Assembly: GCA_026014815.1 (NCBI GenBank)
Contig: JAOZHP010000076.1
Span: forward strand, 7,250 to 71,249
Source: Candidatus Bathyarchaeota archaeon
Lineage (GTDB): Archaea; Thermoproteota; Bathyarchaeia; TCS64
Direction: 5' to 3'
Length of the DNA stretch: 64,000 nucleotides
Numbering within the stretch: position 1 is the first letter of the stretch; every line of letters starts with the position of its first letter. The notes below the pieces were generated by a model, which saw nothing but the letters and a program-made list of their open reading frames with translations, was not told where the DNA came from and ran no database searches. Made by a program: the position numbers and the translations under genes. Below, one piece after another: positions 3,908 through 52,178 of the stretch.

Positions 3908-5164
3908 TTACTTTGTCGTAAAGTACTCGGAGTAAGTGATGTTCCTCACCGTGCCGTCAGGGGCTTTTACACCCACCATGAGCCTCATCTTAACGTACCT
4001 CGGCCCGGTAACTATTAACGTATAATACCTTGTTTGCTGGAATTCTAGGTTGAATACCGTGCTCTCCTTGATACCGACTATGCTTTCATCGATGGCTTCC
4101 AGTCCTAGCCAGGCGCGGTACCCTTCAGCCGTTCTGGGACTCTCATTGGTCAGTGTCATGGTTACAGTGACCTTGTTGCTTCTTATCGAAGCCTCCCACT
4201 CATGGTTCAGGTAAGGCTCAGAGTCCACGATGTACAGGTTTACTTCCTCGTACTTGTGCTCCGATGGGACTTCACCTAGCTCCCAGCCTGTGGCCGTGGT
4301 TTCTAGGTAATAATACGTGCGGTTGTTCAGCAACCAATATGTTCCAGTGGCGTTTGCCTCCACGGCTACCGCCATATGGTTAGGCATGTAGATGAGGGCT
4401 GTGCTTACGTTCATGGCCTTCAGGAAGCTTGAATAGAGGATGGATGTGTCCTCGCAGTCTCCTCCACTGTCCACAAGGGTTTCCACGGGGAACTTGGGGT
4501 ACTCGTCAAAGCCGAGGGTGTCGTCTGTCTCGTAGTGGAGGTTTTGCACGAAACTTGTTACTAGGCCCAATCTCTCTTCTTCACCGTACTTGTTGAGGGC
4601 ACAGATTATCTCGAACTCGTTGAGCAGAGCCTCAATATACGCGTCATCGTATGGGTGCACCACGTAACCCGTGTAGTCAGATGTGCTGTACCGATCCTTT
4701 CCACTGTAATAATCAAGAAGTGGCTCCGGTACCGTGATGTTTACTGTATGCACTTGTGCGCCGTATTCCCACGTGTACTCTCGATGCAGGACAGGTAACG
4801 ACTCTGGGGATAAATCGAGTCCCCCGAAGGACGCCTCGTACTGGTCCAAGAGGGACTCGTACTGGCCCTGAAGCAACGCGTGCTGTTCAAGTAACGCCTC
4901 ATGCTCATCAAACAGTGACTCATACTGGCCTGTAATGTCTAGGTGGCTCTGGTTCAGCTCTGTGAGCTGTGTCTCAAGCCTTGTTTTCTCGGTGCCCTGT
5001 ACCTCGTGGTCGATGGTTAGCTGTTCATAGTCCATGGTAAGCTGGGATACATTATCTTCCAGCTCGATTATCCTCGGAGTAATTAAGTAGTTGTTGCCGA
5101 AGTACCCGGCTGCACCGCCCAGTATGATCCCAATGACGAGTAAGGCGAATGTCTTGGCGCTCAA
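3908..5164 (-). CDS. Membrane-anchored coiled-coil protein with a transglutaminase-like cysteine-protease domain
   Basis: N-terminal TM, heptad coiled coil (about aa 30-112), YPKFPVETLVDSGGDCED, NHMAVAV and YYYLETT (Cys-His-acidic triad pattern). Confidence 0.75.
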   Translation of the reverse strand: MSAKTFALLVIGIILGGAAGYFGNNYLITPRIIELEDNVSQLTMDYEQLTIDHEVQGTEKTRLETQLTELNQSHLDITGQYESLFDEHEALLEQHALLQGQYESLLDQYEASFGGLDLSPESLPVLHREYTWEYGAQVHTVNITVPEPLLDYYSGKDRYSTSDYTGYVVHPYDDAYIEALLNEFEIICALNKYGEEERLGLVTSFVQNLHYETDDTLGFDEYPKFPVETLVDSGGDCEDTSILYSSFLKAMNVSTALIYMPNHMAVAVEANATGTYWLLNNRTYYYLETTATGWELGEVPSEHKYEEVNLYIVDSEPYLNHEWEASIRSNKVTVTMTLTNESPRTAEGYRAWLGLEAIDESIVGIKESTVFNLEFQQTRYYTLIVTGPRYVKMRLMVGVKAPDGTVRNITYSEYFTTK

Positions 5165-5238: not shown

Positions 5239-5763
5239 TTACATACCGATGCCGGGGGTTCTATACCTTTTTTCCCACTCTTCCTTCATGACAATATTTC
5301 GTAGATCGGTGAGATGGTCGGTGCACATGACCCCGTGGAGGTGGTCGATCTCGTGCTGCAGGAGCTCACTCATGTCGTCGCTGAACTCCTCTATGTGCTT
5401 CCCGCCGTCCTCGTCCTTGTACTCGACCTTTATCGCTTTGTTTCGGCTAATCTTGACGAAGAACGCGGCGTTCAAGCTGAAGCAGCTATCCCAGACCATG
5501 AAAGTCTCGGGGCTCCTCCAAATGATGGCTGGGTTAACAAGGTAAAAGCTTCTTTCAGGCATCTGTATGTAGACCACTTTCTTAGGGTACCCGATCTGGG
5601 GCGCCGCCATGCCTCTGCCCATACCTTGCTCCTTCTGGATATGTGTTAACGTGTCCTTGAGGTCTTCAAGGATAAGTGCAAGTTCATCACTAAAGTTCAC
5701 TACTCCATGGGCTTCCTCCCTTAGCCGCGGGTCACCTAACAGAACAGTATCCCGTATAGTCAT
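5239..5763 (-). CDS. def: Peptide deformylase family protein
   Basis: GRGMAAPQIG (motif 1), DSCFS (EGCLS variant) and QHEIDHL (HExxH). Confidence 0.88.
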   Translation of the reverse strand: MTIRDTVLLGDPRLREEAHGVVNFSDELALILEDLKDTLTHIQKEQGMGRGMAAPQIGYPKKVVYIQMPERSFYLVNPAIIWRSPETFMVWDSCFSLNAAFFVKISRNKAIKVEYKDEDGGKHIEEFSDDMSELLQHEIDHLHGVMCTDHLTDLRNIVMKEEWEKRYRTPGIGM

Positions 5764-5866
5764 GATTCAATCTGTGTGACATAGTAAGGTAAATGTTTGT
5801 ATGTTCCTCCGAAAAAATGCGGTTCAATACCCTTTAGCGGTGAATTAAATCTGATTCCGGATATGG

Positions 5867-5986
5867 TTACTGCCCTGGTGGTGCTACGACTTCCTTATGC
5901 TCTTTCTTTATGATGATTTTTCCTCGCTTCAGCTTCCTTTTCTTAAAGCTGGGGAAGAGGTTCTCGTCTTTCTTCTCTGTCATCAT
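5867..5986 (-). CDS. 39-aa candidate Pup/UBact-like modifier peptide, C-terminus PPGQ
   Basis: Not in the ORF track. The ATG is 2 nt after the stop of the Dop-like gene. Sequence MMTEKKDENLFPSFKKRKLKRGKIIIKKEHKEVVAPPGQ*. Confidence 0.7.
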   Translation of the reverse strand: MMTEKKDENLFPSFKKRKLKRGKIIIKKEHKEVVAPPGQ

Positions 5987-5988
5987 TT

Positions 5989-7566
5989 TCACTCTGTGTC
6001 ATGTTTCTCGTGGTCGTCGCTGGGGGCGTACATCATGTGATCCCCCCTCTGGTTAAGCTTGTCGAGGGCCTTGGTGAACTCTGTGAAGGTGCCTGTCGCC
6101 TTCTCGAGGACATCCCCGCACATCTGTTTGTTGAAGATGAAAGGCTCATCCAGACGGATCGATGCGTTGTGAAAGTTGATGCTCTCCCACTCGATGGACT
6201 TGAGCAAGCCCGGGAACTCTCGTGCAGCGAGGCAACGGATGTACTCCCGTGTCCCCTCTGGGCCGTTATGTAACGCATGCTTCACCTTCCCCGTCAGAGC
6301 GTCCCAGTTCTCGAAGGGAATCGCGTCTCTCGCGAACTCCATGGAGTCATCGAGGCTGAACGTGGTTTCGTCCACTTCAACTGTTTCACCTATGTACCTG
6401 AGAACGGTCTCATCCAACAAGGTGTACTGGTTGCAGATGCCTAACCCTTCCTCGATGTCACCCTCAGCGTACTCGTCTATGAGCGTCTTCTTAGTGACCC
6501 AGTCCAGTCCGTCGATGAAGTACTCAAGGCTGCGCTCCTGAAGTCTCTGCACCGTGGCCTTGATGAGGTTGAAAGACCGTCTGTCCGCCTCGGTTGATTC
6601 TTCTCTGCTTAACATCTCCTCGACGCCTGCTAGGTAAAAGCCTTCGAGGATGTCTGCAACTGCGTCTACTCTTGTCCCATCCGCAAGGGTTAGCTTCCAG
6701 TTGAGAGCCTCAGTGTCGGTGGTCATCTCCTTCATGGAGGCAACAGGGTCATCCAGCTTGGGTGCGTCTTGATAGTAACCTTTCTCGTAAGCAGTCATAA
6801 CGAGGGTTTCAAGGTTATCCCTCAGGTAGATCTGGAAAGGGCTTCTGAGTCCTTCCCAGTTGATGTCGTGGAATCTCCAGTACTTCTCGGGGTCTGCGTG
6901 GGGGTCGTTCCTCTGGTTGAGGATGCCCCTAGCGTCCACGGTGTCGTTGCTTGAGACTCTTTTGATGAAGGCTGCACGTGGGCTGATTACGAAGCGAAGT
7001 GTTTCACCGTTCATTATCTTTCCGGGTCGGGGCAGCGAGCCGTCCCTCTTGCAGGGCACATAGTCGCCGCCACCGATTACGGGTATCCGTGCCACCATGA
7101 ATGGGACTAAGGCGTCCTCCATCTTGTCCCAGACATCTGGACCACACACACGTCGATCCATAAGGATGCTGCTGTGAGTGCTGTAGCTGTTTGCCCTCCA
7201 ACCATCGCCTTCCTTGATGTTGGAGACGTTGTTCTTGTACCCGTTTATACCCTTGAAGTAGCTCCTGAGGCCCTTCACGGCGTAGTAGCCGAACAGCTCG
7301 GCGACCCTGTCGTAGATGACGGCCTCCATGCTACTGTTGTAGCTGGGGCTTGAGAGTTCTAGGTGGCTCATGTCGTCGTAGACCCTGAATCCGTTGTAGG
7401 CCATATAGTCCAGTCGGGGCTCCTCGACCTTGATCCCAGTGACAAGCTCTGCCTTCCTAAGCTCCTCGATAGCCATTCCTACTAGGTGTATCAGTGACCT
7501 ATGGGGTAGCTGGGGCTGTGTGTTCATGGCTAGCTCGTGCTCGACTCCACGTATCTTGTGTTCCAT
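5989..7566 (-). CDS. Pup ligase/deamidase (PafA/Dop) family protein, Dop-like
   Basis: GVEHE (GxExE), NGFRVYDDMSHLE, YKNNV, NSYSTH, ISPRA and RGILNQRNDPHADPEKYWRFH resemble Dop NGARLYVDHAHPE and RGIINTRDEPHADxxxYRRLH. The likely ATG is at 7566 (the track starts at TTG 7602). Confidence 0.85.
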   Translation of the reverse strand: MEHKIRGVEHELAMNTQPQLPHRSLIHLVGMAIEELRKAELVTGIKVEEPRLDYMAYNGFRVYDDMSHLELSSPSYNSSMEAVIYDRVAELFGYYAVKGLRSYFKGINGYKNNVSNIKEGDGWRANSYSTHSSILMDRRVCGPDVWDKMEDALVPFMVARIPVIGGGDYVPCKRDGSLPRPGKIMNGETLRFVISPRAAFIKRVSSNDTVDARGILNQRNDPHADPEKYWRFHDINWEGLRSPFQIYLRDNLETLVMTAYEKGYYQDAPKLDDPVASMKEMTTDTEALNWKLTLADGTRVDAVADILEGFYLAGVEEMLSREESTEADRRSFNLIKATVQRLQERSLEYFIDGLDWVTKKTLIDEYAEGDIEEGLGICNQYTLLDETVLRYIGETVEVDETTFSLDDSMEFARDAIPFENWDALTGKVKHALHNGPEGTREYIRCLAAREFPGLLKSIEWESINFHNASIRLDEPFIFNKQMCGDVLEKATGTFTEFTKALDKLNQRGDHMMYAPSDDHEKHDTE

Positions 7567-7639
7567 CAAACCATGTGCCTCGAAAACAAGTCGCAATGCC
7601 AACTCTTGGGCAGGATACTCTATAATATTTGCTACAAGT

Positions 7640-8995
7640 TCAGCGGCTTGAGTCTATTAAGGATTGAATCTCAGCCGTTTTCGCCTTGATCTTTTTATTT
7701 GTCCATCCACCAAGCTCGTTGAACTCGAAAGGGTAGTAGTTTATCTCGGGTTTCAGCTTGATGTAGCTCCAGCTCATGGTCTTCAACTCGTCCTTGAACC
7801 GTTTGGCGAGAGCGACTCTTAGTGTTCCCCTGCTCTCACAGGGTGGGTCCATGAACGCCTTCTTGACGTTCTCTTCCGAGATTATGGTTCTCAGTCCGTG
7901 GCTCTCCACAAGTTCATCGTACAGCGGGTCAGTGACCGCTGTATACTGGTACATCGCTGCCTCTTTCGCTGCATCCATGCTTAGACCCTCCTCCACGATG
8001 TACTCGTCCAGCACTTTCTCTGTGAGCCTCATCTTGATGACCCACTCGATGGATGTGTCCAAGGATTCAATCAATCCCTCATCGAGCTTCCCGAGAACCC
8101 ACTTGAACTCACGAAGAGCCATCAGGTCGTGATCCGCAGGGCTTCCATCAGCGAAGACACGTTCAATCGCCTCAAGATAATGGGAGTTGAGGTAATCAAT
8201 GACCCTTATCTCAGCGCCCTCCTTCAAAGGGACAGTCCAGTCTCCGTCGAGGCTCAGTGAGATCGCTTTGTTGGACTCGATTGGAGCCTCTATCTCGGGC
8301 ACCGATGTGAGGTGTCCTTGCTCGATTGCCCTGAGGATATAGCTGGTGATGCTGTGCTTCAGGAACGTTGTTACCTCAGAACGGGCTCCCTCCCCATTCA
8401 CGATGTGGGCGCGACTGAAAACGTCGTCTGTGTGGGACTCGTCACGTGTGCTGATAATCGGGTAATCGGTGCTGGTCTCCGAGTACAGGGTCTTGGGGAA
8501 AATTGTTCGAGGAGAGACGAGGTATCTCCCGTTCACGTATCCACCTGCACCGCAGAAGACCTGCCTCAAAACGAGGTAAGGTATGAGAAGATGAATGTTC
8601 TCAACGTACTTTTCCCGTTTGACGAGGTAGTTCTCGTGGCTCCCAACGGTCGTGTAGGGTACCTCTCCTTTGGGGTCAGTGGCTATGTTGGTCTTGTAGA
8701 GGTGGACTTGTTCACCTGTGTCTTCTTGGTAGGTCCATGAGGCTAGTCGGGCGTACGCCTCACACGCTTTTTCATAAGCCAACATCTCCAAGGGGTTCCT
8801 ACACTCGGGGGTGCAGACCTCGAAGAGGTTGCCGTGGATGTAGCAGAGGCCACCGTTTCTGAGAAAAGCCCGTGGGATGCCGTCGTCTGGCTTGAAGACG
8901 TAGACCCCTCGTTTGCCGAGGGCCTCAAAGAGCCCCATGGGCCATGAACCTGCGGCGAACTCTTGTTCTGCTCCCTGCCACATATTTAGAGACAA
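7640..8995 (-). CDS. Pup ligase/deamidase (PafA/Dop) family protein, PafA-like with divergent active-site strand
   Basis: GAEQEF, FLRNGG..Y..E..TPEC, LYKTN, GSHENYL, RQVFCGAG, PIISTRDESH, RAHIVNGE and IEWVIK motifs. Confidence 0.85.
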   Translation of the reverse strand: MSLNMWQGAEQEFAAGSWPMGLFEALGKRGVYVFKPDDGIPRAFLRNGGLCYIHGNLFEVCTPECRNPLEMLAYEKACEAYARLASWTYQEDTGEQVHLYKTNIATDPKGEVPYTTVGSHENYLVKREKYVENIHLLIPYLVLRQVFCGAGGYVNGRYLVSPRTIFPKTLYSETSTDYPIISTRDESHTDDVFSRAHIVNGEGARSEVTTFLKHSITSYILRAIEQGHLTSVPEIEAPIESNKAISLSLDGDWTVPLKEGAEIRVIDYLNSHYLEAIERVFADGSPADHDLMALREFKWVLGKLDEGLIESLDTSIEWVIKMRLTEKVLDEYIVEEGLSMDAAKEAAMYQYTAVTDPLYDELVESHGLRTIISEENVKKAFMDPPCESRGTLRVALAKRFKDELKTMSWSYIKLKPEINYYPFEFNELGGWTNKKIKAKTAEIQSLIDSSR

Positions 8996-9023
8996 GTAAT
9001 CCCGTGAATGGGTGTCTGAGGCT

Positions 9024-9064
9024 GTAAATAATTTTTGATCAAGCCCTTGGAAGCCGTTATATAA
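9024..9064. promoter_or_regulatory. Divergent archaeal promoter region (PafA-like operon / amidohydrolase)
   Basis: Minus strand AAAAATTATTTA about 30 nt before 8995; plus strand TTATATAA at 9057-9064, about 30 nt before ATG 9093. Confidence 0.45.
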
Positions 9065-9083
9065 TTATTGTATATATTACGCA

Positions 9084-12952: not shown

Positions 12953-13086
12953 TGGTGGGGCCGGAAGGATTTGAACCCTCGATATTTGAGTTTCTCCGCT
13001 CCAGAAACTCGTCATTCCCCGTAGGGTCAGTTTCAGTGATTGTACTTTCTGGAGCCCAACGTCGTACCAGGCTGGACCACGGCCCC
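12953..13086 (-). tRNA. tRNA-Trp(CCA) with a 57-nt intron at 37/38 (12992-13048); CCA end encoded
   Basis: Acceptor GGGGCCG/CGGCCCC-ACCA; T arm GAGGG-TTCAAAT-CCTTC; anticodon stem TTGGG/CTCAA; CTCC/GGAG central helix of a BHB-like motif. Confidence 0.93.
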
Positions 13087-13528: not shown

Positions 13529-13652
13529 TGGGTAACCGGCCAAAGGGCGTGGGACCCACCCGAACCCATCCGAACTCGGAAGTTAAACCACGCTCCGTTT
13601 GCGGCTTTAGTGATGTCTTAGGCTTCGCGAAACCGCGAAAGCTGGTGGCCCA
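13529..13652 (+). rRNA. rrf: 5S rRNA (unlinked)
   Basis: Helix I TGGGTAACCGGC/GCTGGTGGCCCA; conserved CCCATCCGAACTCGGAAGTTAA; about 124 nt. Confidence 0.92.
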
Positions 13653-41503: not shown

Positions 41504-41610
41504 GCCGGGGTAGCATAGATTGGCTAATGCGCTGGACTCATGATCCAGAGGTTACAGGCACCAGAGCCTTAGCCGGATAAAGAGCGTGGGTTCAAATCCC
41601 ATCCCCGGCA
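41504..41610 (+). tRNA. tRNA with CAT anticodon (probably elongator Met) and a 32-nt non-canonical intron at 43/44 (41549-41580)
   Basis: Acceptor GCCGGGG/CCCCGGC-A; anticodon arm CTGGA-CTCATGA-TCCAG; T arm GTGGG-TTCAAAT-CCCAT; ATCC/GGAT central helix flanked by AG|A and AA|A. Confidence 0.88.
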
Positions 41611-42071: not shown

Positions 42072-45062
42072 TTGTTTCGACTGAATCGCGATTTGAGCAA
42101 AGGTAGCAGTCAGGAAGCCACCTACGGCTTTAATCCAGCTACAGCAAAGACACTGTTAATTGTAGTTATGTTAATGCTGAGTAATCCAGTTCCAGCAAGG
42201 GGTTTACTCAGCGAACCAAACCTGTCATCTGATTCTGGTGACGTCGGTGACCTTGTGCATGTTTATGGAAACGAGGGAGACGTAGGAGGAGGCCTGACTG
42301 CTTTGCTCTACTGGGACTCGGTGAAACAGTGGGACGGAACCAAAGGTATCCTGAATGCCTCTGTCTCGGAGCCCAGTGGATACTATACAATGAGTTTCAC
42401 GGTCCCCGAGTCAACAGGAGGAAAACATTACCTATGGGTAACCGACGACTTCACAGGCTCAAAGACCAGTACAGAGTTCACCGTGACACCCTCACTAATA
42501 ATGGACACCCTTTACCTGACTCCGAGTAACACTGAGACCTTCCTAGGGAAAGGATTTGGGGGGGATACTCAGGTCACCTTCATGCTTCGCAGACATGTAA
42601 GCGAACAGTTCAATGATTGGCCTTCCACCTCCACCTTACAATTAATAGGAACAGGGGATGATGTAACCACCCGGTTTACAGGCACGTTGAGTAACCTGCC
42701 ATTAAAACCAGGCACAGCTCAGGTCACCTGCGATCTTATCACTCTCGCTGACACTGGAAACGGGACCATCATTGGGTCTGGTGGCTACGGTGAAATCGAT
42801 TATGTGACCGGAGATTTCTCCGTCTCGTTTTCCGATCCTCCTTCCTTAGGTTCAGATATCGACCTCGCGTACGAGTTTTTCGAGGAAGTGGCTAACGAGG
42901 TGTATCCACTTGACCGATACACCACAAGCAGCTCGAGGGGAAATTTCATGAAGGATCTTACCATACCCCAGGTACCATATGGAAGTTACTGGTTCTGCGC
43001 CATGGACTCTGTGAACAACACGGAGGTAGTAGCCGTAGAGGTCTCTCCCATCGTCAAACTTAGCAAGACTTCGGTTGATACGGGCGACGTTATTCAGGTT
43101 CGTGGCGAAGACTTTACCCCAGGCTCATATATCCGTAGTCAGGACATCAAGCTCTACTCAGAGGAATGGAACGGGAGCTATTGCGCCATCTATAATTACC
43201 CTGGCGGGGCAGGGGTCCCCATTGACCCGGATGGGGAGTTCACGATAAATGTGATCATGCCTAACCCGCCGAAGACAGGTGATTACACGTTACTAGTGAG
43301 CGATAGCACTGGAGTAAAAAACGAGAAAACAATAACTGTAAACACACGTGCGAGCGTCCAACTGTCTGTATCCACCGTTGATGACGAGCACACCATTACA
43401 GTGACTGGAAAACACTTTACCAACATCAAGGGTCGACAAGTATCTTTTGAGCTATGGAACATATCGGGAGATCCCTCGGATGGAATAATCCCCATTGGCG
43501 CTGCCACAACAGATGCGTTTGGGTCCTTCACCCAAACCATCTCGATAAGCAAAGTACAACACCTTCAATACTTGTTCGTGGCCGTTATCGACGAGGACTC
43601 GATACAGGCAAGTGAGCCTTTACAGATCACCTCACTAAGCGTGACATTGTATACGGAGCAAGGTAAACCTGGAGACGAAGTAAAGTTATCCGGGAACGGC
43701 TTCACTAAAAACAGTAACTGGAGCGCCAAACTAAACACCACAACCGTGATCGAGGCCGATGAGGGAACCACCAACAGCAAGGGACAACTAAGGATAGGAT
43801 ACAAGTCACCATCGTTCACTGTCCCGGAGCTTGAGCTAGGAATCTACAGGTTAATCGTTACAGATGAGACACTCAAAAGATCCATACAGATACCGTTTAC
43901 CATTCTTGAGGAAGAACTATCAATAAACACAGAGTACCCTGTCCCAAGGTTCACGACAGATACGACTTACAAAGAGGGAGAAGCGGTACTATTCAATGCG
44001 TCAGAGTCTTCGGACTCAGATGGAATCATAATCTCATATAAATGGGATTTCGGTGACGGCGATTCATCAACAAAGCCAGTAGCTTATCATACCTTCAATC
44101 AAGACGGTATATTCACTGTCTCCCTCACGGTAAAAGACAACAAGAACGCAAAATCTACTAAAAGTAAAACACTGGTTATAGTGGACTTAGACCCCGCACC
44201 AAACTTTGATGCAAGCAAAGAAGAAGGATACAATCCCTTAACAGTAAAGTTCACGGACACCTCGAGTCTCCACGACCTCGTAACCTACAGGCAATGGGAC
44301 TTTGGAGATGGCTCCACAAGCCAGCAAGAGAACCCGGAGCACACCTACACAATGTTCGGCGTTTACACCGTCAGCCTTACATTAAGAGAGATCGACGGCG
44401 ATGAGGTTGTCATGGAAAAGACTCAGTTAATAGTTGTTATGGGGGATGACAATGCCCCCCCACGAGTTCATACCGTCGAGTCATCCGTCACAGGTAAACA
44501 ATGCACACTCTACGCAGTTGTCACTGACAACTCTGACATCAAGTCAGTATACATCCGGGCTTATGATGGAAACGAGTACGAACTCATAGAAGATTACAAT
44601 CTACCGGGACTTTACATGGTAACCATCCCATATGTGTCTTCAGAGACGGTTGATCCTGTCCTGTACGCTATGGATTATAACGGCAACTATGCACAGCAAT
44701 CAGTAATTCTTCCACCGAGCAGCGACAATGAAACAGTGTCAATTACTCTCAGCACAGGCTGGAACAGCGTAACACTTGCTCCAGATATCACCTTTGGGTC
44801 TATCGAGAGCCTCATAGAGTCTGTTGAATGTTTCGGGTCAATAATCGATGTTTACGGTTCCGTCGTATATGGCACATCACCACAAGTCAAATCACCATAC
44901 GTAAAGTCCATCTGGACCATCGACGAGTACCGGGGATACCTGATGTACGACCCAGCAACAGGCATAAGCGACTTCGACAGCCTCATAGGCGGAAGAGAGT
45001 ACTGGGTTTACGTTGACGGCAGCCTCCCTGTGGCCATGGATATACGCCTCGTTACTAGTTAG
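42072..45062 (+). CDS. Large secreted/surface protein with Ig-like repeats and two PKD domains
   Basis: Signal-like hydrophobic stretch, WDFGDG twice, Ig-like repeats and a C-terminal LSTGWN..GREYWV module; true start uncertain. Confidence 0.8.
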   Translation: MFRLNRDLSKGSSQEATYGFNPATAKTLLIVVMLMLSNPVPARGLLSEPNLSSDSGDVGDLVHVYGNEGDVGGGLTALLYWDSVKQWDGTKGILNASVSEPSGYYTMSFTVPESTGGKHYLWVTDDFTGSKTSTEFTVTPSLIMDTLYLTPSNTETFLGKGFGGDTQVTFMLRRHVSEQFNDWPSTSTLQLIGTGDDVTTRFTGTLSNLPLKPGTAQVTCDLITLADTGNGTIIGSGGYGEIDYVTGDFSVSFSDPPSLGSDIDLAYEFFEEVANEVYPLDRYTTSSSRGNFMKDLTIPQVPYGSYWFCAMDSVNNTEVVAVEVSPIVKLSKTSVDTGDVIQVRGEDFTPGSYIRSQDIKLYSEEWNGSYCAIYNYPGGAGVPIDPDGEFTINVIMPNPPKTGDYTLLVSDSTGVKNEKTITVNTRASVQLSVSTVDDEHTITVTGKHFTNIKGRQVSFELWNISGDPSDGIIPIGAATTDAFGSFTQTISISKVQHLQYLFVAVIDEDSIQASEPLQITSLSVTLYTEQGKPGDEVKLSGNGFTKNSNWSAKLNTTTVIEADEGTTNSKGQLRIGYKSPSFTVPELELGIYRLIVTDETLKRSIQIPFTILEEELSINTEYPVPRFTTDTTYKEGEAVLFNASESSDSDGIIISYKWDFGDGDSSTKPVAYHTFNQDGIFTVSLTVKDNKNAKSTKSKTLVIVDLDPAPNFDASKEEGYNPLTVKFTDTSSLHDLVTYRQWDFGDGSTSQQENPEHTYTMFGVYTVSLTLREIDGDEVVMEKTQLIVVMGDDNAPPRVHTVESSVTGKQCTLYAVVTDNSDIKSVYIRAYDGNEYELIEDYNLPGLYMVTIPYVSSETVDPVLYAMDYNGNYAQQSVILPPSSDNETVSITLSTGWNSVTLAPDITFGSIESLIESVECFGSIIDVYGSVVYGTSPQVKSPYVKSIWTIDEYRGYLMYDPATGISDFDSLIGGREYWVYVDGSLPVAMDIRLVTS

Positions 45063-45119
45063 TGGCTTCACACACAACATTATACACAGTTTTCAGTCAA
45101 TACCTGTTGAGTATTCGAC

Positions 45120-46529
45120 TTGAAGACGCATCTAGCTCGTGCCATCACAATGCTAGCCATAGTTCTAGGTATGTTTCTCACGTTGACGAGCGTCCATGCG
45201 GTGCCTGATCTTCCTCACGCAGTGAGTGGGATTGTCACCATCAACGGTAAACCAGTACAGGAAATACTGTTATTGGAGGCCAAGATCAATGGCTCAAGCT
45301 ACTCAGCGACGTATCTGAAGGAAGGCGAGTTTGGAGTAACGCCCACCTTCAAAGTGCCCATGGATGACCCTGATACGAGCCTAATAGAAGGAGCACATAA
45401 CGGTGACCTCATAGAGATCTATCTCGACGGCATCAAGGTCACCGAGCTGCTGTTCGAGTCAGGGCTCGTATCACGGCTAGTTCTTGATGTCTCTCATATC
45501 GCTGAGCTTGGAAACGAGCCCCCTCAAGCGGTTATTGGCCCATTCTCTGAGGCAGTAAATGGTTACAGCTTTGTTTTGAAGGGAAGCGATTCCTCCGATC
45601 CTGATGAAAACTCATTGACTTATAACTGGGACTTTGATAACGGGGGCTCCTCAAATGAACCTAACCCGGTTCACATCTACCAGTTCCCTGGCACATATAA
45701 CGTGTCATTAACCGTGACAGACACATATGGAGACAGTGACACCCAGCATATCCAGGTAAATGTTCAACGTAAACCAGACCCTGTGTACTGGAAGCTTTAT
45801 GATGTCTCACTACTGGGTGAGATGAACCATGTACTCGACAGTGACTCAGGGATACGGATGGAACTCCTATGCGTGGACAACAACGGTCTTACTCTGTACG
45901 AGTATGACAGGGTTTTCCTGACCAACAATCTACCCTACTCATATGAACATGAATTGTATGGAGTTTCCTTCAGCAATCCAGATGCCACAAGCTGGCCCAT
46001 ATACATGGAGATAGAGATCCCTCAACATTACTCCACGGAGCCGCCTGCCCTTTACTCATGGATTGATGGAAGATGGACGAAATGTGGGTCATCGGGGTCC
46101 ATCATCGGTGAGCAGAAGCTCTGGGCTTACTTATATCAAGGCGACATGGGAGAAGGGATATTCCTAGTTGGCTCAGACCCAGGAGAATATGTCGAGGTCA
46201 AAGAGGTCACCGCCACCGTAACCGAGATGAATGATTACCTGATTACTGCAAAGTTACAGAGCATTGGATACACGGGCGACTACGATGTTTATCTGCGCGT
46301 AGATGACGCGCTCATCAGCAAACAGTCAACATATCTTCACTCAGGCCAGCAAGCAGAAGTAGCGTTTACGGCGAACCTTGGAGGCGGTAGCCACGAAGTT
46401 TCTGTCAACGGTCTATCGAAAAACGTAAAGTCCGCGTCCGTCCTTAATTCTTCATTTATCATTGGGTTAGGATTGGTGCCAATAGTTGCGTTCGGGTTGT
46501 TCTCTTCTAGGATAAAAAGAATAATCTAG
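45120..46529 (+). CDS. Surface protein with PKD domain and C-terminal TM anchor
   Basis: Signal peptide, SSDPD..YNWDFDNG..PGTYNVSLTVTD and a C-terminal TM plus basic tail. Confidence 0.8.
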   Translation: MKTHLARAITMLAIVLGMFLTLTSVHAVPDLPHAVSGIVTINGKPVQEILLLEAKINGSSYSATYLKEGEFGVTPTFKVPMDDPDTSLIEGAHNGDLIEIYLDGIKVTELLFESGLVSRLVLDVSHIAELGNEPPQAVIGPFSEAVNGYSFVLKGSDSSDPDENSLTYNWDFDNGGSSNEPNPVHIYQFPGTYNVSLTVTDTYGDSDTQHIQVNVQRKPDPVYWKLYDVSLLGEMNHVLDSDSGIRMELLCVDNNGLTLYEYDRVFLTNNLPYSYEHELYGVSFSNPDATSWPIYMEIEIPQHYSTEPPALYSWIDGRWTKCGSSGSIIGEQKLWAYLYQGDMGEGIFLVGSDPGEYVEVKEVTATVTEMNDYLITAKLQSIGYTGDYDVYLRVDDALISKQSTYLHSGQQAEVAFTANLGGGSHEVSVNGLSKNVKSASVLNSSFIIGLGLVPIVAFGLFSSRIKRII

Positions 46530-46698
46530 CCCAGTAACATAGTTAATTTCAGCTATAAACAACGATAATCAGAATAATTAATTTATTTGATTACCAATGT
46601 ATCAGATATTTTCACACCTTTTATGCACATTTATTTTCTTTCATTTACAGAAAAGTAAATAACGATGAATCTGAGATACTGTTCAGGAAGGAATCACT

Positions 46699-49425
46699 AT
46701 GCAAAATAAACTCAAATTATCACTATACAAATTCATTATGCTGATCACAGCGTGTTTACTGTGTTCGATCGTTATGGTCGGAGCAGCGACATCCACTGAT
46801 TTCCCAGTAGAGGTTGACATTAACTCAGGAGCGGATGTCTTCCAGTTTGCACGTCACACTGGAAGTGCTACAGAGGGAAACTGGATACTTCTATCCGGGG
46901 GTACATCAGTAACAATGCCAACTGTAACACTCATTTATTCCGGTATCTCCAGTACAAATTATGATAAAGGAGGTAATAACGTCGATATTCAAGCTCTATC
47001 AGAGGTAATTGGTGACTCGGTGATTTATCCTTATGCAACTCATCAGATATTCTCGACAAGTCAGACAATCGATTATACTTTCTACGGTAGAACTAGTCTA
47101 GCGACGGATAGTGTTGACGTCAAACTCATCAAAGTCACAGATCCGACTGACTACGAGACCGCTGCGTCAGATATCTTCAACGGTGATCCAGCGGCTCTTC
47201 AAACTATACTTGATAACCCAGACTATGATACATCAACGACCCTCGATGGTAATGGTGACATACTTGGAGGAAGCATCCCGGCACAATCCGCTGGGGACTA
47301 TATCATGGTAATAATGTGGGATGACGGCACATTGTACAAGATCTACTCTGCTACTATAGTTGAGGTAGTCGATTATGGATGCACTGTTACAGTACCTACC
47401 TCAGTAAGAGAAGGCTATGACTTGGAACTGGATATTACCTTAACAGGCGCCCCCGCCGGGTCGTACATCTATGGAGCAGCGATAATTAAGGAAACCGAGT
47501 ATTCTCTCGATCTCGCGGTTACCACCGGTGGCTCGATCGATAGCACAGATGTCACTGTTAATGGTGCAGCCTTGTTAGAGGGATCTGGTTCATCTTTTGC
47601 TCTCTTTGGAGGAGGATTCTCAGATTTGCATCTCGATGACGCCCAGACACTGTTATCTCAGATGTTTCCATCATCCAGCTACGCGTTAGCGTTCTCAACT
47701 ACAACCTCAACTAACACATACACGCTCAAACTTACAACTGAAGGACTTGATGAAGCTAATTATAAGGTACTAGTAGGTGTCTGGGATACATCAGGCGATC
47801 TATTTACAGGAGACCGAATACTTGGATTCGCCGAGGGAACTGTCTACGTTGATAAAGTCAGCCTTGGTACCCCTGGCCCACTTGTTCCCCCATTACCTGA
47901 ACCAGAAGATGTAGAAGAAATGCCTTTAGATGAGGCTGTCGAGACGATTCTGGGATTATCCACTGAAGATGCCGCGGATATAATCGATGAACTCAGCGAC
48001 GAAAAAGCCGCAGAGATCATAGAGGAACTCGACACTGAAACAGCAGTCGATATCATAGAGGAAGTCTCCGAGGAGACAGCGAAAGCTATCATTGAAAACA
48101 TTGATGAAGAGACTGCAGCAGAGATTCTTGAGCAACTCGACGAGGAAACTGCAGTAGATCTCATCGTTGCACAGGAGACTGAGAAAGCCGCAGATATAGT
48201 TGAACAGATGAATGCTACTGATGCCGCTGAGATCATCGAAGCTGGAGCCGATGAACCTGAATCTTTCGATGCCTTTACTGACATCCTAAATGAAATGGAC
48301 GAGGAGGCGACAGCTGATATTCTATTGGAGCTCACTATCGAGACCGGTGCTCAAATTGTCGAGGAAATGGCTACTAAAGACTTGACGGCAGCTGCGGAAC
48401 GTGTTGAAGCCGCGGTTAAGAAACGGCTTGCCGAGACTGATCCAGAGTTAGCTGCTGAGGTAATGGCGAAAGTCATTGATACCTTGGAAAATGTCTCAGT
48501 CGAGTCATTGGTTGACTTGTTCGTCACAATCGCTAATCTACCTGCAACGCCTTCAACTGTGGCAGATGTCTTTGAGGCGATGTCTATATCCAAGACCCTT
48601 GAGGTCATCTCGTCTTGGGTGGATGTTGGGTTCGAGGAAGAACTGGCCCTAGTATTCAGTTACCTGACACCTGATACACTTGAAGGAATCTACCTAGGGA
48701 TGGCAGAAGCTGAAAGAACTGTTCTCTATCCATACCTAGATACAGCCACGGTTGCAGCTCTACCCGCATTAGGCGAATTGCAAGTTGAGTTATCCGTTAA
48801 CCCAGAGTCAGTAGAGCCGGGAGACGATGTCACGATAACCGCTGAACTCACCAACATAGGAGACGAAACCGGAGACTATACGATAACACTGAATGTGGAT
48901 GGTGAGGAAACTGATGCGGAGATCATAACTCTGGCACCGGACGAATCCACGACACTAACATGGACAATATCAAGAGACACGCCTGGAAGCTACACAGTTG
49001 ATGTAGCTGGTGAGGCAACCGAGTTCACAGTTGAGGTACCTCTATCGCCCGCCGAGTTCCAGATCTCGGGATTGACAGTGAACCCCTCAACAGTCGAGTC
49101 CGGAGAGGACGTGACTGTTACAGTTACTGTCGAGAACGTCGGTGAACTATTGGGTACATATGAAGTCGAGGTAATGCTAGACGGCGTAAAAGTTGACGAG
49201 ACATCTGGCCCACTCTCCGGAGAAAGCGAGACTTCTGTTACCTTTACAGTTTCTTCTGACGAGACAGGCACTCACACGGTAGCTGTCGATGGGCTATCGG
49301 CTCAGTTCAGCGTGGAAGAACCACCAGAGCCACCGGCACCATCATTCCCGTGGATACCCGTAGCTGTTGGTTTAATAGTTGTAGCCGCAATAGCGTTCTA
49401 CTTCTATAACCAGCGGACTCAGTAA
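46699..49425 (+). CDS. Surface protein: methanogen-type (TIGR04279-like) N-domain, acidic helical repeats, two CARDB-like domains, TM anchor
   Basis: TEGNWILLSGG N-terminal motif, 12-aa acidic repeats, CARDB-like TNIGD/ENVGE motifs and a C-terminal TM. Confidence 0.75.
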   Translation: MQNKLKLSLYKFIMLITACLLCSIVMVGAATSTDFPVEVDINSGADVFQFARHTGSATEGNWILLSGGTSVTMPTVTLIYSGISSTNYDKGGNNVDIQALSEVIGDSVIYPYATHQIFSTSQTIDYTFYGRTSLATDSVDVKLIKVTDPTDYETAASDIFNGDPAALQTILDNPDYDTSTTLDGNGDILGGSIPAQSAGDYIMVIMWDDGTLYKIYSATIVEVVDYGCTVTVPTSVREGYDLELDITLTGAPAGSYIYGAAIIKETEYSLDLAVTTGGSIDSTDVTVNGAALLEGSGSSFALFGGGFSDLHLDDAQTLLSQMFPSSSYALAFSTTTSTNTYTLKLTTEGLDEANYKVLVGVWDTSGDLFTGDRILGFAEGTVYVDKVSLGTPGPLVPPLPEPEDVEEMPLDEAVETILGLSTEDAADIIDELSDEKAAEIIEELDTETAVDIIEEVSEETAKAIIENIDEETAAEILEQLDEETAVDLIVAQETEKAADIVEQMNATDAAEIIEAGADEPESFDAFTDILNEMDEEATADILLELTIETGAQIVEEMATKDLTAAAERVEAAVKKRLAETDPELAAEVMAKVIDTLENVSVESLVDLFVTIANLPATPSTVADVFEAMSISKTLEVISSWVDVGFEEELALVFSYLTPDTLEGIYLGMAEAERTVLYPYLDTATVAALPALGELQVELSVNPESVEPGDDVTITAELTNIGDETGDYTITLNVDGEETDAEIITLAPDESTTLTWTISRDTPGSYTVDVAGEATEFTVEVPLSPAEFQISGLTVNPSTVESGEDVTVTVTVENVGELLGTYEVEVMLDGVKVDETSGPLSGESETSVTFTVSSDETGTHTVAVDGLSAQFSVEEPPEPPAPSFPWIPVAVGLIVVAAIAFYFYNQRTQ
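47923..48246 (+). repeat. About nine degenerate 36-bp (12-aa) coding repeats, MgtE-N-like
   Basis: PLDEAVETILGL/STEDAADIIDEL/SDEKAAEIIEEL/DTETAVDIIEEV/SEETAKAIIENI/DEETAAEILEQL/... Confidence 0.75.
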
Positions 49426-49514
49426 ACATCATTTCCATTTTTTCTTACTTTATACCATAAACAGTATTACGTTGTTGTGAAATCCTCTAATTTTTTAACT
49501 ACACACTCGTTCAT

Positions 49515-51782
49515 ATGTTCAGAGATTCGGTCGAAATGAAAAAAATCATAATTTTGATTTTAATCTGGCATTTTATAATACCTGGTGTATTTGGGGTTGT
49601 TTCATCAGTCGATTACTCTCCAAGCTCTCCAACACAAGGAGACACTCTGAACATCAATATACTGGCATCAGCAAACGAAGAGGTAGATATCACAATCGTG
49701 TTCGAAAAAGAAGTACCCGTCGAGAATGGTGGATACAAATACGAATTATTTGATGTACTCATCCCACAACGCCCTAACAAGTTCTCCGTCAAAGCTACAG
49801 GTGTCGATAACTTGGTTGTAGCCGTTAGGATGATGGGGATCTGGGTCAGTCTGAATAAGGACGCCTCTGGTGGTGTAGCCACGATATCTCAGAGTAATAT
49901 CCCCTCTGATCACTACGATACACAGATCAAAGGAGACGCTGCAGTGGGCCAATCAACTGTCCACCTAAAAATAACGGCTCAAACCACAGTGACAACTGAA
50001 TCAGATGGTCATTACACTTTTTATTACGATACTAGTAGCCTGCCTCCAGGAACTTTCACCGCAAATGTCGGAGGCGTCACGAAGACATTGACCTTAAAGT
50101 CTGCTAGTTCCTCATCATCAGGAGGAACTCCGACAATTCTTCCCCCAGTAGCGAGGTTTCAACACAATGGATCGCTCTACGTTAATGACTCGATAATTTT
50201 TGACGCCTCAGACTCATCTAGAGGAACTGGGAGTATCGTTTCGTATTCATGGGACTTTGGGGATGGAACGACAGGATCAGGCGAAACAATTTCTCACGTG
50301 TTCAATACCATCAAAACATACGCAGTCACACTTACCGTGAAGGACTCCCTAAACCAAGTAAGCACTATAACTAGTTCACTTGATATCGGGTTGAGACCGA
50401 ATGAATTTCCCATTGCTGTTGCAGGGTCTTCACGTACAGCTTTCACGGGGCAGAACTTGACTTTTAACGGACATAGGTCCGTTGATCCCGATGGAGATAT
50501 AATTTCCTATCTCTGGGAATTCGATGACGGAACCATATCCACCAATGGTCTCGCAGAACATGTCTTTCTGATCCCTGGGAGATACAACGTAACTTTAACA
50601 GTTACAGATGATCGTCATGACTCCTCAACAAACCAAATAGAGATCACGGTTGTTGAGCCGCCGTCCCCAATCTCTAATGAAGTACAGACTAGATTGAGCA
50701 TGAATAATAACTTGGTAGAGGCTCTGGGAGTGAAACTTGTCTTGAACACAACGAGCGAGGTGAATGTTCTCCTTTACGAGTACACATCTAACCCTCACCC
50801 TCAAGTGGAGTTACCTAGTTACACCATCGGTCCAGTGATTGATGTAAGTGTAAGTGACCCAGACGCGGTACAATGGCCAGTATACTTCGAGTTGAGTTAT
50901 AGTGGCATGAACGTCACTGAGGCATTGGAGATGGTTCTTGGACTATATTATTACGAGGATGAAACATGGCATCGATGTGACAGCACTGGGGCATACCCAG
51001 AGAGAGATGTCGTTTGGGCTTTCATGACCCGAGAAGAGATGTCAGGTAGCCCTGTTCTTATCGGTGAGGTTGACCTACTTCCAGTCTTCAATGTATCTGA
51101 TTTGGTGTATACTCCAGAGTCACCCGAAGTCGGTGACTTGATTCTGATAAATGTGAAGGTTACGAACACAGGTGATAAACCTGAAGATGCTATTGTGTTG
51201 CTTGAGATAAATGATGAACCTGTCAATTCATCTATGATTTATCTTCATCCATCTGAGACCGTGGAACTTGAGTTCCATCACACACCAGCAGATATCGGTG
51301 AAATGACTCTACGAGTAGATGATCTTACCCAAACTTTAGTGATTAATCCGAGAACATATCCTGATCTAGTCGTTAAACAATCATCCATCCCTGACGAGGT
51401 ACTACCTTCCGAGGCATTTTCTATGGTTTTTTGGGTAACTAATCAAGGAGATAAACCATCTGACTCTTTTGTCGTTAAATTAACGGTCAATGACTTGATT
51501 CTGGGTTCAAAGAGAATTCAGAGTTTAGATGTAGGTGAGGAAATTGAGGTTTCTTTTAATTGGGTCTCTACGATAACAGGTGAATTTTCGGGGAGCCTTG
51601 ACTTGGACATAAATGGAGACGTGGAGGAAACAATCGAGGATAATAATGCGTTCAAGTTTTCTATCGCAGTCACTCAACCTTCAAATGGAAATTTTCAATA
51701 TCTCTATGGTGTCGTTTTGATTATGCTTCTTGTTCTCGCCTGGAAGATATATCCTTACCTTAAGGAAATAATTATAAGGTAA
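49515..51782 (+). CDS. Surface protein with two PKD and two CARDB-like domains, TM anchor
   Basis: Signal peptide, WDFGDG and WEFDDG, TNTGD/TNQGD, VEETIEDNN and a C-terminal TM. Confidence 0.82.
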   Translation: MFRDSVEMKKIIILILIWHFIIPGVFGVVSSVDYSPSSPTQGDTLNINILASANEEVDITIVFEKEVPVENGGYKYELFDVLIPQRPNKFSVKATGVDNLVVAVRMMGIWVSLNKDASGGVATISQSNIPSDHYDTQIKGDAAVGQSTVHLKITAQTTVTTESDGHYTFYYDTSSLPPGTFTANVGGVTKTLTLKSASSSSSGGTPTILPPVARFQHNGSLYVNDSIIFDASDSSRGTGSIVSYSWDFGDGTTGSGETISHVFNTIKTYAVTLTVKDSLNQVSTITSSLDIGLRPNEFPIAVAGSSRTAFTGQNLTFNGHRSVDPDGDIISYLWEFDDGTISTNGLAEHVFLIPGRYNVTLTVTDDRHDSSTNQIEITVVEPPSPISNEVQTRLSMNNNLVEALGVKLVLNTTSEVNVLLYEYTSNPHPQVELPSYTIGPVIDVSVSDPDAVQWPVYFELSYSGMNVTEALEMVLGLYYYEDETWHRCDSTGAYPERDVVWAFMTREEMSGSPVLIGEVDLLPVFNVSDLVYTPESPEVGDLILINVKVTNTGDKPEDAIVLLEINDEPVNSSMIYLHPSETVELEFHHTPADIGEMTLRVDDLTQTLVINPRTYPDLVVKQSSIPDEVLPSEAFSMVFWVTNQGDKPSDSFVVKLTVNDLILGSKRIQSLDVGEEIEVSFNWVSTITGEFSGSLDLDINGDVEETIEDNNAFKFSIAVTQPSNGNFQYLYGVVLIMLLVLAWKIYPYLKEIIIR

Positions 51783-51804
51783 TTTTTCTCACCGGATTTT
51801 CTGA

Positions 51805-52035
51805 TCATGCGTCGTCTTGCTTCTGCTCGATGAGGTTTTTCATTATCTTTATGTTCTTATTCAGGAGGTTTTTCTGTTCCTCAAGTTCCTTCAGCTTCTT
51901 CTCGATGTCTGCCTTGGAGGCTTCTTTTCTCATGAACTCGAATATCTCGCTGTGCCCGTATTTGAGGTGAAAGTCCATCTGCTTCTTTTGGTCTCTTTCG
52001 AGTCCACAGAAAGGGCATACGTACATCTTGTCCAA
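51805..52035 (-). CDS. Small C2H2 zinc-finger plus coiled-coil protein
   Basis: YVCPFC-x12-H-x4-H followed by a heptad coiled coil. Confidence 0.7.
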   Translation of the reverse strand: MDKMYVCPFCGLERDQKKQMDFHLKYGHSEIFEFMRKEASKADIEKKLKELEEQKNLLNKNIKIMKNLIEQKQDDA

Positions 52036-52178
52036 TTATGTCCCCATGTTAACTCGATAACTGGCGTTAATAACGGTTCCCCATGAAAATTAAGTAGTTC
52101 TGAGATTGGAAAAATGAATTATTAATTGATGTATCCTTATACCATAAACAAATTATATAGTTTTATTTCAATCGATGA

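Follow-up and report, generated by a model that had tools for sequence, protein, structure and literature searches.

A candidate Pup-like tagging module of two divergent Pup_ligase-family enzymes and a very small peptide in archaea

Do archaea possess a protein-tagging route that resembles bacterial pupylation, and how closely are its components related to those of bacteria? Pupylation is treated as a bacterial process, centered on Actinobacteria with sporadic transfer to other phyla, in the relevant passages of three accounts (PMC2588565; PMC7947786; PMC3511204), and archaeal tagging is described only via beta-grasp proteins in the relevant part of another (PMC2948915). The question is raised by a 64,000-nucleotide (nt) stretch of DNA from a Candidatus Bathyarchaeota archaeon (contig JAOZHP010000076.1 of assembly GCA_026014815.1, positions 7,250 to 71,249 of the forward strand), hereafter called the window. 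A first-pass annotation had proposed that a 451-amino-acid (aa) “PafA-like” protein, a 525-aa “Dop-like” protein and a short peptide constitute a carboxylate-amine-ligase tagging system in this archaeon. The enzyme family, the gene linkage and an open reading frame (ORF) ending in G[Q/E] are borne out by our analysis, but the PafA and Dop roles are not. We refer to the two proteins as enzymes A and B and to the short product as the tag peptide.

All three ORFs are present at the positions originally claimed, co-oriented on the minus strand (Table 1), and each motif quoted for them is found: GAEQE (residues 8-12), GSHENYL and TRDESH in enzyme A, and GVEHE, RVYDDMSHLE and RGILNQRNDPHAD in enzyme B. 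The TGA stop codon of enzyme B occupies positions 5991-5989, and the ATG of the 39-aa peptide ORF begins 2 nt later at 5986. This ORF ends in VVAPPGQ followed by TAA at 5869-5867, in agreement with the PPGQ terminus noted in the first pass, and use of a second ATG (5983) yields 38 aa, the length typical of its homologues. The genes for enzyme A, enzyme B and the peptide form an operon-like three-gene module. Profile searches of the window proteins also confirmed that no arc/mpa or prcAB genes are adjacent.

Both enzymes match the Pup_ligase profile PF03136 far above its cut-off of 25 bits. Enzyme A does so with an E-value of 3.2e-69 and 234 bits over profile positions 70-440 of 441, and enzyme B with 4.6e-48 and 165 bits over positions 69-440 of 441; the first ~69 profile positions are aligned only in some relatives. 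Membership of either known enzyme type is a different matter. Against the Dop equivalog model TIGR03688 (cut-off 492 bits) enzymes A and B score 192 and 141 bits, and against the PafA equivalog model TIGR03686 (cut-off 551 bits) they score 168 and 97 bits. The locus of Nonomuraea gerenzanensis (mpa, dop, pup, prcB, prcA, pafA) served as a positive control, with scores of 761 bits for PafA and 786 bits for Dop. Sequence matches to chains in the PDB follow the same order, with enzyme A matching Dop (4b0r) at 3.6e-37 and PafA (4b0t) at 1.5e-22, and enzyme B matching the two at 2.3e-25 and 4.3e-12. Both enzymes thus score higher against Dop than against PafA, for models and structures alike. In archaeal metagenome-assembled genomes (MAGs) such enzymes are automatically annotated as “PafA2 family protein”.

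The metal-binding site of the family is retained. Dop is described as both a deamidase and a depupylase in part of PMC8599861. Acidothermus Dop has the Mg ligands E8, E10, Y92, E99, H155 and H241 (PMC8599861, Fig. 6 legend), and its D94 is stated there to activate water (PMC8599861). All six ligand positions are kept in enzyme A (E10, E12, Y52, E59, H120, H197) and in enzyme B (E21, E23, Y75, E82, H143, H245); among the relatives, enzyme A of genome G035 has Gln at the last of them. The catalytic-loop Asp corresponds to D77 in enzyme B and is invariant in 30 sequences of its clade. The Dop-loop, a segment of ~40 residues, is placed between the first strand (GxExE) and NGxRxY in the pertinent section of PMC7947786. 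Measured as the number of residues between the GxExE and NGxxxY motifs, this site comprises 38 residues in Nonomuraea PafA and 76 in Nonomuraea Dop, 34 and 46 in window enzymes A and B, 47 and 67 in A and B of G035, 67 in Methanomethylicia B, and 53 and 54 in ANME-1-type A and B. Neither window enzyme carries a Dop-sized loop, and partial inserts occur in the B enzymes of G035 and Methanomethylicia. Enzyme B tends to carry a longer insert than enzyme A at this site.

Phylogenetic analysis places A and B apart from the enzymes of actinobacterial pupylation. Trees were computed with FastTree (150 sequences) and with IQ-TREE (73 sequences by 469 columns, LG+C20+F+G4 with posterior mean site frequencies (PMSF), quick search); they are unrooted, their clans were delimited after the tree had been seen, and 13 rows deviate in composition. 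The two methods agree on the topology of the A, B, PafA and Dop groups. In the IQ-TREE result, support by the Shimodaira-Hasegawa-like approximate likelihood ratio test (SH-aLRT) is 100 for clade A, 99 for clade B and 94 for A and B together versus everything else, and the clans containing verified PafA and verified Dop are sisters inside the remainder. Approximately unbiased (AU) tests reject a grouping of A with the PafA clan (p 0.00037, log-likelihood difference 55.6) and of B with the Dop clan (p 0.0025, log-likelihood difference 65.6). Because both clades fall outside verified PafA and Dop and the AU tests reject these pairings, the initial labels “PafA-like” for the 451-aa protein and “Dop-like” for the 525-aa protein are unsupported; the preference of both proteins for Dop models, at scores far under either cut-off, and the lack of a Dop-sized loop in the window enzymes speak to the same point. 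Since A and B group together outside the PafA and Dop clans, the archaeal pair appears to derive from a separate duplication and not to be a copy of the PafA/Dop pair. Named members of the two clades are all archaeal, save one entry labelled “Patescibacteria”, and belong to Bathyarchaeota, “Promethearchaeota”, Methanomethylicia, Methanophagales, Alkanophagales and Methanomicrobia. A Planctomycetota homologue (P0051) sits in the bacterial part of the tree, outside clades A and B. Several A and B representatives have longest contigs of identical size, which suggests that they are pairs encoded on the same contigs.

The tag peptide of the window, MTEKKDENLFPSFKKRKLKRGKIIIKKEHKEVVAPPGQ, contains 12 Lys and Arg among its 38 residues, and a profile built for it finds a single copy in the window genome. 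In Bathyarchaeia the peptides are 27-38 aa long, and in Methanomethylicia ~31 aa; in archaeal MAGs their genes are listed as “hypothetical protein” or are uncalled. An alignment of 17 peptides shows no variation at K19, H29, V33, A34, P35 and G37, and its final position holds Q or E. Pairwise ratios of nonsynonymous to synonymous substitution (dN/dS) range from 0.01 to 0.33 among 10 loci, for pairs with a computable dS and with synonymous sites near saturation. The readable loci preserve both the sequence and the position of the small ORF, and its dN/dS values are low; it is therefore more than a chance reading frame, namely a real gene under purifying selection. A collection of 5.8 billion proteins contains 11 homologous clusters, all ending in APPG[QE] and named only “hypothetical protein”. 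In the ESM Atlas the window peptide is absent, the best score for the ANME-1-type tag (0.79) is at chance level, and P0008 gives no usable match.

Terminal Gln and Glu interchange among these peptides. The final residue is Q in nine and E in seven of 16 Bathyarchaeia genomes, Q in six and E in five of the database clusters, E in all 11 Methanomethylicia peptides, and E in 18 and Q in one of the ANME-1-type loci. The peptides of G207 and G282 are nearly identical, and their sole difference is Q versus E at this residue. Such interchange, together with a G-[EQ] terminus encoded beside a PafA-family gene, is the Pup pattern described by Iyer et al. (2008) in the corresponding part of PMC2588565.

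Linkage of the three genes was assessed across 401 evenly sampled genomes of Bathyarchaeia, the window genome among them. Carriers are 11 of the 31 genomes of the window genus, all five of its sister genus, and one genome in each of three other families. Genes A and B are adjacent in the inspected loci wherever the contig allows, and the peptide gene directly follows B in 16 of the 20 enzyme-positive genomes. The other four loci are unreadable after B, owing to contig ends (G017, G010, G264) or a gap of N inside B (G187, seemingly a closed genome). No readable locus lacks the peptide, so the doubt whether homologous loci share a conserved G[Q/E]-ending ORF is removed for Bathyarchaeia. Within family f1, the tag profile matches 17 of 71 genomes, and 14 of these 17 also carry the enzymes. 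The remaining three contain decayed remnants only: in G013 (L111, C5, ~5326-5830) the amidohydrolase gene that flanks the module abuts a C-terminal fragment of B and the tag frame has lost its stop, in G020 (L112, C122, 987-1091) a 35-codon tag frame lacks a start, and in G024 (L113, C35, ~1986-2042) just the last 19 tag residues are left. The three genes are therefore kept and lost together, because genomes without the enzymes hold nothing but wrecks of the tag. This pattern points to repeated loss of the module by deletion within the genus. Conversely, the module has moved as a unit into different neighborhoods in G237 and G043.

The module extends beyond Bathyarchaeia. In a phylum-wide sample of 401 genomes, 12 of the 32 genomes of one further family are positive; these are Methanomethylicia, and an entry named Methanomethylicota/Verstraetearchaeota matches their B protein at 100% identity. 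A homologous 31-aa tag with the consensus MSDILPSFK.KEK.DKKLKKEH.E..APPGE is encoded in 11 of the 12 loci, the twelfth being cut by a contig end, and its start overlaps the stop codon of B. Among the nearest A representatives at 50% identity is a cluster that bears the names ANME-1, Methanophagales or Methanosarcinales. Among 30 metagenome contigs of this ANME-1 type, 23 show a gene for A (~586 aa) followed by B, and 19 of the 20 loci with at least 300 nt after B contain a small ORF ending in KKIMPYEIYATSG[EQ]. Its open frame is 87-115 aa long, with a conserved part of 67 aa and a long acidic head. A profile alignment (hhalign) of the Bathyarchaeia and Methanomethylicia tags with the ANME-1 tags gives a 23-column, end-anchored match at a probability of 6% and an E-value of 0.006, which is at most suggestive and does not amount to evidence of homology.

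What, then, might the module do? Its observed basis is family membership, retention of the metal ligands, a peptide gene under selection, strict linkage and Q/E interchange. We favor, with a probability of roughly 0.6, a native archaeal module for Pup-like, reversible conjugation of the terminal Glu side chain of the peptide to amines, most likely protein lysines. The modifier would be the basic 38-aa peptide, whose C-terminal Gly-Gln or Gly-Glu would enter the active site of both Pup-ligase-family enzymes. One enzyme would use ATP to phosphorylate the terminal Glu's gamma-carboxylate and join it to an amine, most likely on lysine side chains of proteins, and the other would convert terminal Gln to Glu, hydrolyze the isopeptide bond, or both. 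We tentatively, and with low confidence, cast A as the ligase, since none of the family-wide Glu residues is missing from it, and B as the amidase, because it has an invariant Asp, usually has a longer insert where Dop has its loop, and is encoded directly before the peptide gene as dop is before pup. Since B is retained in Methanomethylicia, where all tags end in E, it may also have a deconjugating role besides deamidation. Peptide binding, deamidation, ligation, protein targets and any connection to the 20S proteasome or Cdc48 are what we infer from the features of the genes and their products. The wider picture stands at about even odds: archaeal tagging outside the beta-grasp fold would have arisen by an independent Pup-ligase duplication, would employ the shortest known encoded modifier (27-38 aa, poly-lysine-rich, attached via its terminal Glu side chain), and would have dispersed over Bathyarchaeia, Methanomethylicia and ANME-1/Alkanophagales while often being lost.

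Several observations weigh against conjugation of this kind. At the position of the catalytic Asp of PafA and Dop, enzyme A has His54 (window positions ~8834-8836), and His is found there in 114 of 118 close relatives; the position is Asp in Methanomethylicia and in three other Bathyarchaeia families (G035, G237, G043), and Cys in ANME-1/Alkanophagales. All three residues can serve as a base or nucleophile, and the chemistry of enzyme A may vary by lineage. Missing from clade B are two Glu residues with ~98% conservation elsewhere in the family (TPE is changed to SPS and HENY to HSSI). The archaeal tags also look unlike Pup: they are basic, with isoelectric points (pI) of 9.2-10.2 (10.2 for the window peptide) versus 4.2 for Nonomuraea Pup, and those of Bathyarchaeia (27-38 aa) and Methanomethylicia (~31 aa) are shorter than the 50-90 aa given for Pup in a passage of PMC2588565, while the ANME-1-type peptide is longer. 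Four archaeal peptides searched against Pfam and NCBIfam gave no match at E<=10, and hhalign found no similarity to verified Nonomuraea Pup (probability 0.1%). No gene for a proteasome, Mpa/ARC or another receptor is linked to the module in the window or in the related loci examined. The module is rare and repeatedly lost, with PF03136 matches in 20 of 401 Bathyarchaeia genomes and in 14 of 401 genomes of the phylum sample. The gene order also has exceptions. In G594, a Methanomethylicia genome, A (C20:2263-3384) and B with the tag (C7:16617-17828) lie on separate contigs (L092, L098), and no A is found in the 1.2 kb upstream of B. The Alkanophagales-like locus L076 (6956-10405) encodes A and a B that shares 88% identity with a named Alkanophagales protein, and no small ORF ending in G[QE] is present within 4.3 kb after B or elsewhere in its 5-13.5 kb region; its tag may lie elsewhere or end differently.

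A conserved G-[QE] peptide accompanied by two carboxylate-amine-ligase-family enzymes would also fit if the peptide were a substrate but no protein tag, serving instead as a carrier for a small-molecule amine on its terminal Glu, in the manner of LysW/ArgW with LysX, or becoming cyclized through one of its own lysines (e.g. K19). Amidoligases resembling glutamine synthetase have been proposed to make cyclic peptide products (an idea of Iyer et al. 2009, as summarized in part of PMC3511204). The very short (27-38 aa), lysine-rich peptide with its invariant Lys and His would suit such a function, as would the lack of any linked proteasome or unfoldase gene, and the amidohydrolase conserved beside the module within the genus could be a pathway enzyme. 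Carrier-protein genes, however, normally sit among the enzymes of their pathway, whereas no biosynthetic genes travel with this module, whose neighbors are wholly different in the window genus, G237/G043, Methanomethylicia and ANME-1. The ANME-1-type tag, with at least 67 aa and a long acidic head, is unlike a small cyclic product, and retention of the hydrolase-like paralogue where every tag ends in E fits reversible tagging better. We therefore regard a carrier or cyclic product as rather unlikely.

In another explanation, the enzymes would act on other substrates, for instance as a metabolite gamma-glutamyl-amine ligase and amidase, and the peptide would be a co-transcribed bystander, perhaps with a nucleic-acid-binding or regulatory function. 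The strong positive charge of the peptide (12 Lys and Arg of 38 residues) is suited to RNA or DNA binding, and the variation of A at its catalytic-loop position and the two family-wide Glu residues missing from B might mean that the chemistry has drifted. Hard to explain on this basis is the terminal Q/E after an invariant Gly, which recurs in three lineages and in two unrelated-looking peptide families. The peptide, furthermore, decays where the enzymes are lost and is found nowhere else in the genome. We judge a bystander peptide to be quite improbable.

The possibility of a mis-binned or chimeric bacterial fragment, or of a recent and non-functional transfer of bacterial pupylation, bears on the host itself. 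GC content is even across the module region, and it drops to 0.38-0.45 at ~50-56 kb of the window. The gene order amidohydrolase-A-B-peptide-deformylase, or as much of it as contigs allow, recurs in six independently assembled genomes of the same genus (G007, G003, G012, G017, G018 and G001), where the amidohydrolase at the flank has a protein identity of 83-88%. Archaeal traits of the window include DUF1512 and two tRNA matches of intron-bearing size. Eleven of the 12 related contigs from the genome collection are labelled Bathyarchaeia or Bathyarchaeota. The twelfth, L030, bears the NCBI label “Patescibacteria group bacterium”, and this entry, the patchy distribution of the module and the estimated contamination of 4-9% in the MAGs concerned could be taken to indicate an artefact. 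Yet L030 corresponds to G215, with the same contig number and an identical peptide, and the genome collection assigns G215 to the family of the window. The module also resides on long contigs of clean genomes: on a contig of more than 570 kb in G512 (92% complete, 1% contamination), in G435 (96% complete, 1% contamination) and, for a Methanophagales clade member, on a 1.19-Mb contig. The contig is of Bathyarchaeia, and a chimera, which the first-pass annotation had listed as one possible refutation, is excluded for practical purposes because its flanks are syntenic in independently assembled genomes of the genus. With named members of clades A and B archaeal apart from the one mislabelled entry, both clades outside bacterial PafA and Dop, and all three genes intact or under purifying selection, an artefact or dead cargo is largely refuted already and extremely improbable.

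If the module tags proteins, its products would meet the native 20S and Cdc48 machinery. The genome assembly is 3.09 Mb in size and 93% complete, and enzymes A and B are its sole two PF03136 genes. Four 20S subunit genes and Cdc48 (1017 bits) are encoded on other contigs, and a second Cdc48-like gene adjoins the proteasome genes, away from the module. As for the receivers suggested in the first pass (20S, PAN and Cdc48), the 20S and Cdc48 components are present, whereas PAN is doubtful because the assembly, at 93% completeness, yields no match above the cut-off.

Features of the locus and of the rest of the window are collected in Table 1. A TTTTTT run ~50 nt past the peptide stop may be an oligo-T terminator of archaeal type, marking the end of the three-gene unit ahead of the deformylase gene. 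The AT-rich spacer between enzyme A and the divergently oriented amidohydrolase gene contains two TATA-like words, which by inference from sequence could be candidate divergent archaeal promoters. A scan for bacterial-type terminators, which is unsuited to archaea, found nothing on the module strand, and a scan for sigma-70 promoters, a bacterial model likewise unsuited to this host, gave matches at chance level only.

Table 1. Positions of the module genes, their surroundings and other features in the window (numbering from the first nucleotide of the window).
Feature	Position	Strand	Remarks
Enzyme A	7640-8995	-	451 aa; 447 aa if the start is ATG 8983; archaeal clade A of the Pup_ligase family
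Enzyme B	5989-7602	-	537 aa with TTG 7602 as start, 525 aa with ATG 7566; archaeal clade B of the Pup_ligase family
Tag-peptide gene	5867-5986	-	39 aa with ATG 5986 as start, 38 aa with ATG 5983
TTTTTT run	5812-5817	-	read from sequence
AT-rich spacer, 88 nt	8996-9083		between enzyme A and divergent amidohydrolase gene
TATA-like word TTATATAA	9057-9064		in spacer
TATA-like word AATATATA	9071-9078		in spacer
Peptide deformylase gene	5239-5763	-	PF01327, 3e-35; directly after A-B-peptide module
Membrane-anchored coiled-coil protein	3908-5164	-	weak transglutaminase-like domain; DUF553, 22.6 bits vs cut-off 20.5
tRNA, 131 nt	12956-13086	-	Rfam; 71-position model; missed by ARAGORN; intron-sized
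tRNA, 107 nt	41504-41610	+	Rfam; 71-position model; missed by ARAGORN; intron-sized
Lone 5S rRNA gene	13532-13650	+	Rfam
Run of large genes with PKD, CARDB, NosD-like and Ig-like domains	42072-54335	+	probably surface proteins
MgtE_N-like repeats and CARDB in one gene	46699-49425	+	within the large-gene run

Neighboring genes were considered as further components of the module. The gene with a weak transglutaminase-like domain was rejected as a partner: it adjoins the module in the window and in G003, but G012 and G001 lack it at this site. The deformylase and amidohydrolase genes lie outside the module as we define it because their conservation at this site is restricted to the genus. Archaea are known to start proteins with unformylated Met, and a peptide deformylase, kept beside the module within the genus, is an unexpected enzyme for an archaeon. 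In G017 a 572-aa gene is located between A and B (L016:4051-5769, plus strand); its product is rich in N-x-S/T sites, resembles a signal sequence at its start, carries a membrane anchor at the C terminus and has no Pfam match. A gap of similar size (~1.7 kb) separates A from B in G010 (L019).

A separate conserved ORF was noted in Methanomethylicia. It follows the tag gene, encodes 95-121 aa ending in EEKYEPPP (L099:3080-3445 and L097:3049-3366, both plus strand), and is found at the same position in L095, L096, L098, L100, L103, L105, L106 and L107. Weak matches to double-psi beta-barrel domains (Molydop_binding, 30.3 bits with a cut-off of 26.8; CDC48_N, E-value 0.007) raise the prospect that this protein could be a reader or adaptor of the tag. 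A search with one query did not find it in the window genome (G000).

How new would such a system be? Within a literature search that did not extend to the UBact paper or to the supplementary phyletic tables of PMC2588565 and PMC7947786, which might list archaeal hits, we came across no account of a pupylation-like system in archaea. The available text of the 2025 “Pupdates” review and of a 2024 ubiquitin review makes no mention of one, and that of a 2010 paper mentions only putative Pup-like halobacterial proteins. The chemistry family and the gene logic are known; the non-orthologous enzymes, the sequence-unrelated mini-tags, the lack of proteasome linkage and the archaeal setting are new. 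At least three archaeal lineages carry the A-B-peptide module, which makes it a candidate for a second, chemically different archaeal tagging route. A duplication separate from that of PafA and Dop would be a natural experiment for studying how duplicated enzymes acquire ligase and amidase roles. Should both archaeal clades lie outside every bacterial PafA and Dop, then this way of tagging has a greater age or a wider distribution than an invention in Actinobacteria would imply. It also becomes testable whether an archaeal 20S/Cdc48 machinery reads a Pup-like signal. Very small tags with cognate enzymes could in addition become labelling tools, comparable to the PafA-based proximity labelling named in PMC8825456.

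One close point of comparison is actinobacterial pupylation. Both systems have two paralogous PF03136 enzymes that retain the Mg ligands and a small modifier gene that directly follows one of them on the same strand, and in both the modifier ends in G-[Q/E], with Q/E interchange among relatives. The archaeal enzymes, however, are not orthologues of PafA and Dop (97-192 bits versus cut-offs of 492-551), the catalytic Asp is replaced in enzyme A by His (by Cys in some other lineages), and the loop site of window enzyme B has 46 residues versus 76 in Dop. The archaeal modifier is unrelated to Pup in sequence, basic instead of acidic, 27-38 aa long versus 69 aa, and ends in APPG[QE] versus GG[QE]. 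There is, moreover, no linked mpa/arc or prcAB, and the host is an archaeon with its own 20S proteasome and Cdc48.

Similar chemistry is known from the LysW/ArgW systems, which occur in archaea: LysX or ArgX uses ATP to ligate the gamma-carboxylate of a C-terminal Glu to an amine, and a hydrolase later releases the product. These systems have an ATP-grasp ligase, an acidic zinc-ribbon carrier and genes inside lysine or arginine biosynthesis clusters, and none of these three traits is seen in the archaeal A-B-peptide module. The UBact systems of Lehmann et al. (2017) reportedly have a short modifier ending in G-[E/Q] beside Dop and PafA homologues outside Actinobacteria, in bacterial loci that are said usually to include Mpa and proteasome genes as well. 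In a comparison by profile model, the four archaeal peptides searched gave no hit at E<=10 to any modifier model named in NCBIfam or Pfam. The proteasome-unlinked loci of Planctomycetes and Deltaproteobacteria outlined in PMC2588565 likewise combine Pup-ligase paralogues divergent from PafA and Dop with an adjacent G[EQ] peptide. Their ligases, as characterized there, have a four-helix transmembrane insert and a linked membrane protein gene (PMC2588565), neither of which is seen in the archaeal module. SAMP, Urm1 and other ubiquitin-like proteins share with the module the notion of a small archaeal protein tag that possibly feeds the 20S proteasome, as set out in part of PMC2948915. SAMP and Urm1 are beta-grasp proteins ending in GG whose alpha-carboxylate is adenylated by E1-like enzymes, according to the same part of that source (PMC2948915), whereas the archaeal module proposed here would employ a likely unstructured peptide, activated at a side-chain carboxylate by an enzyme of the glutamine-synthetase fold.

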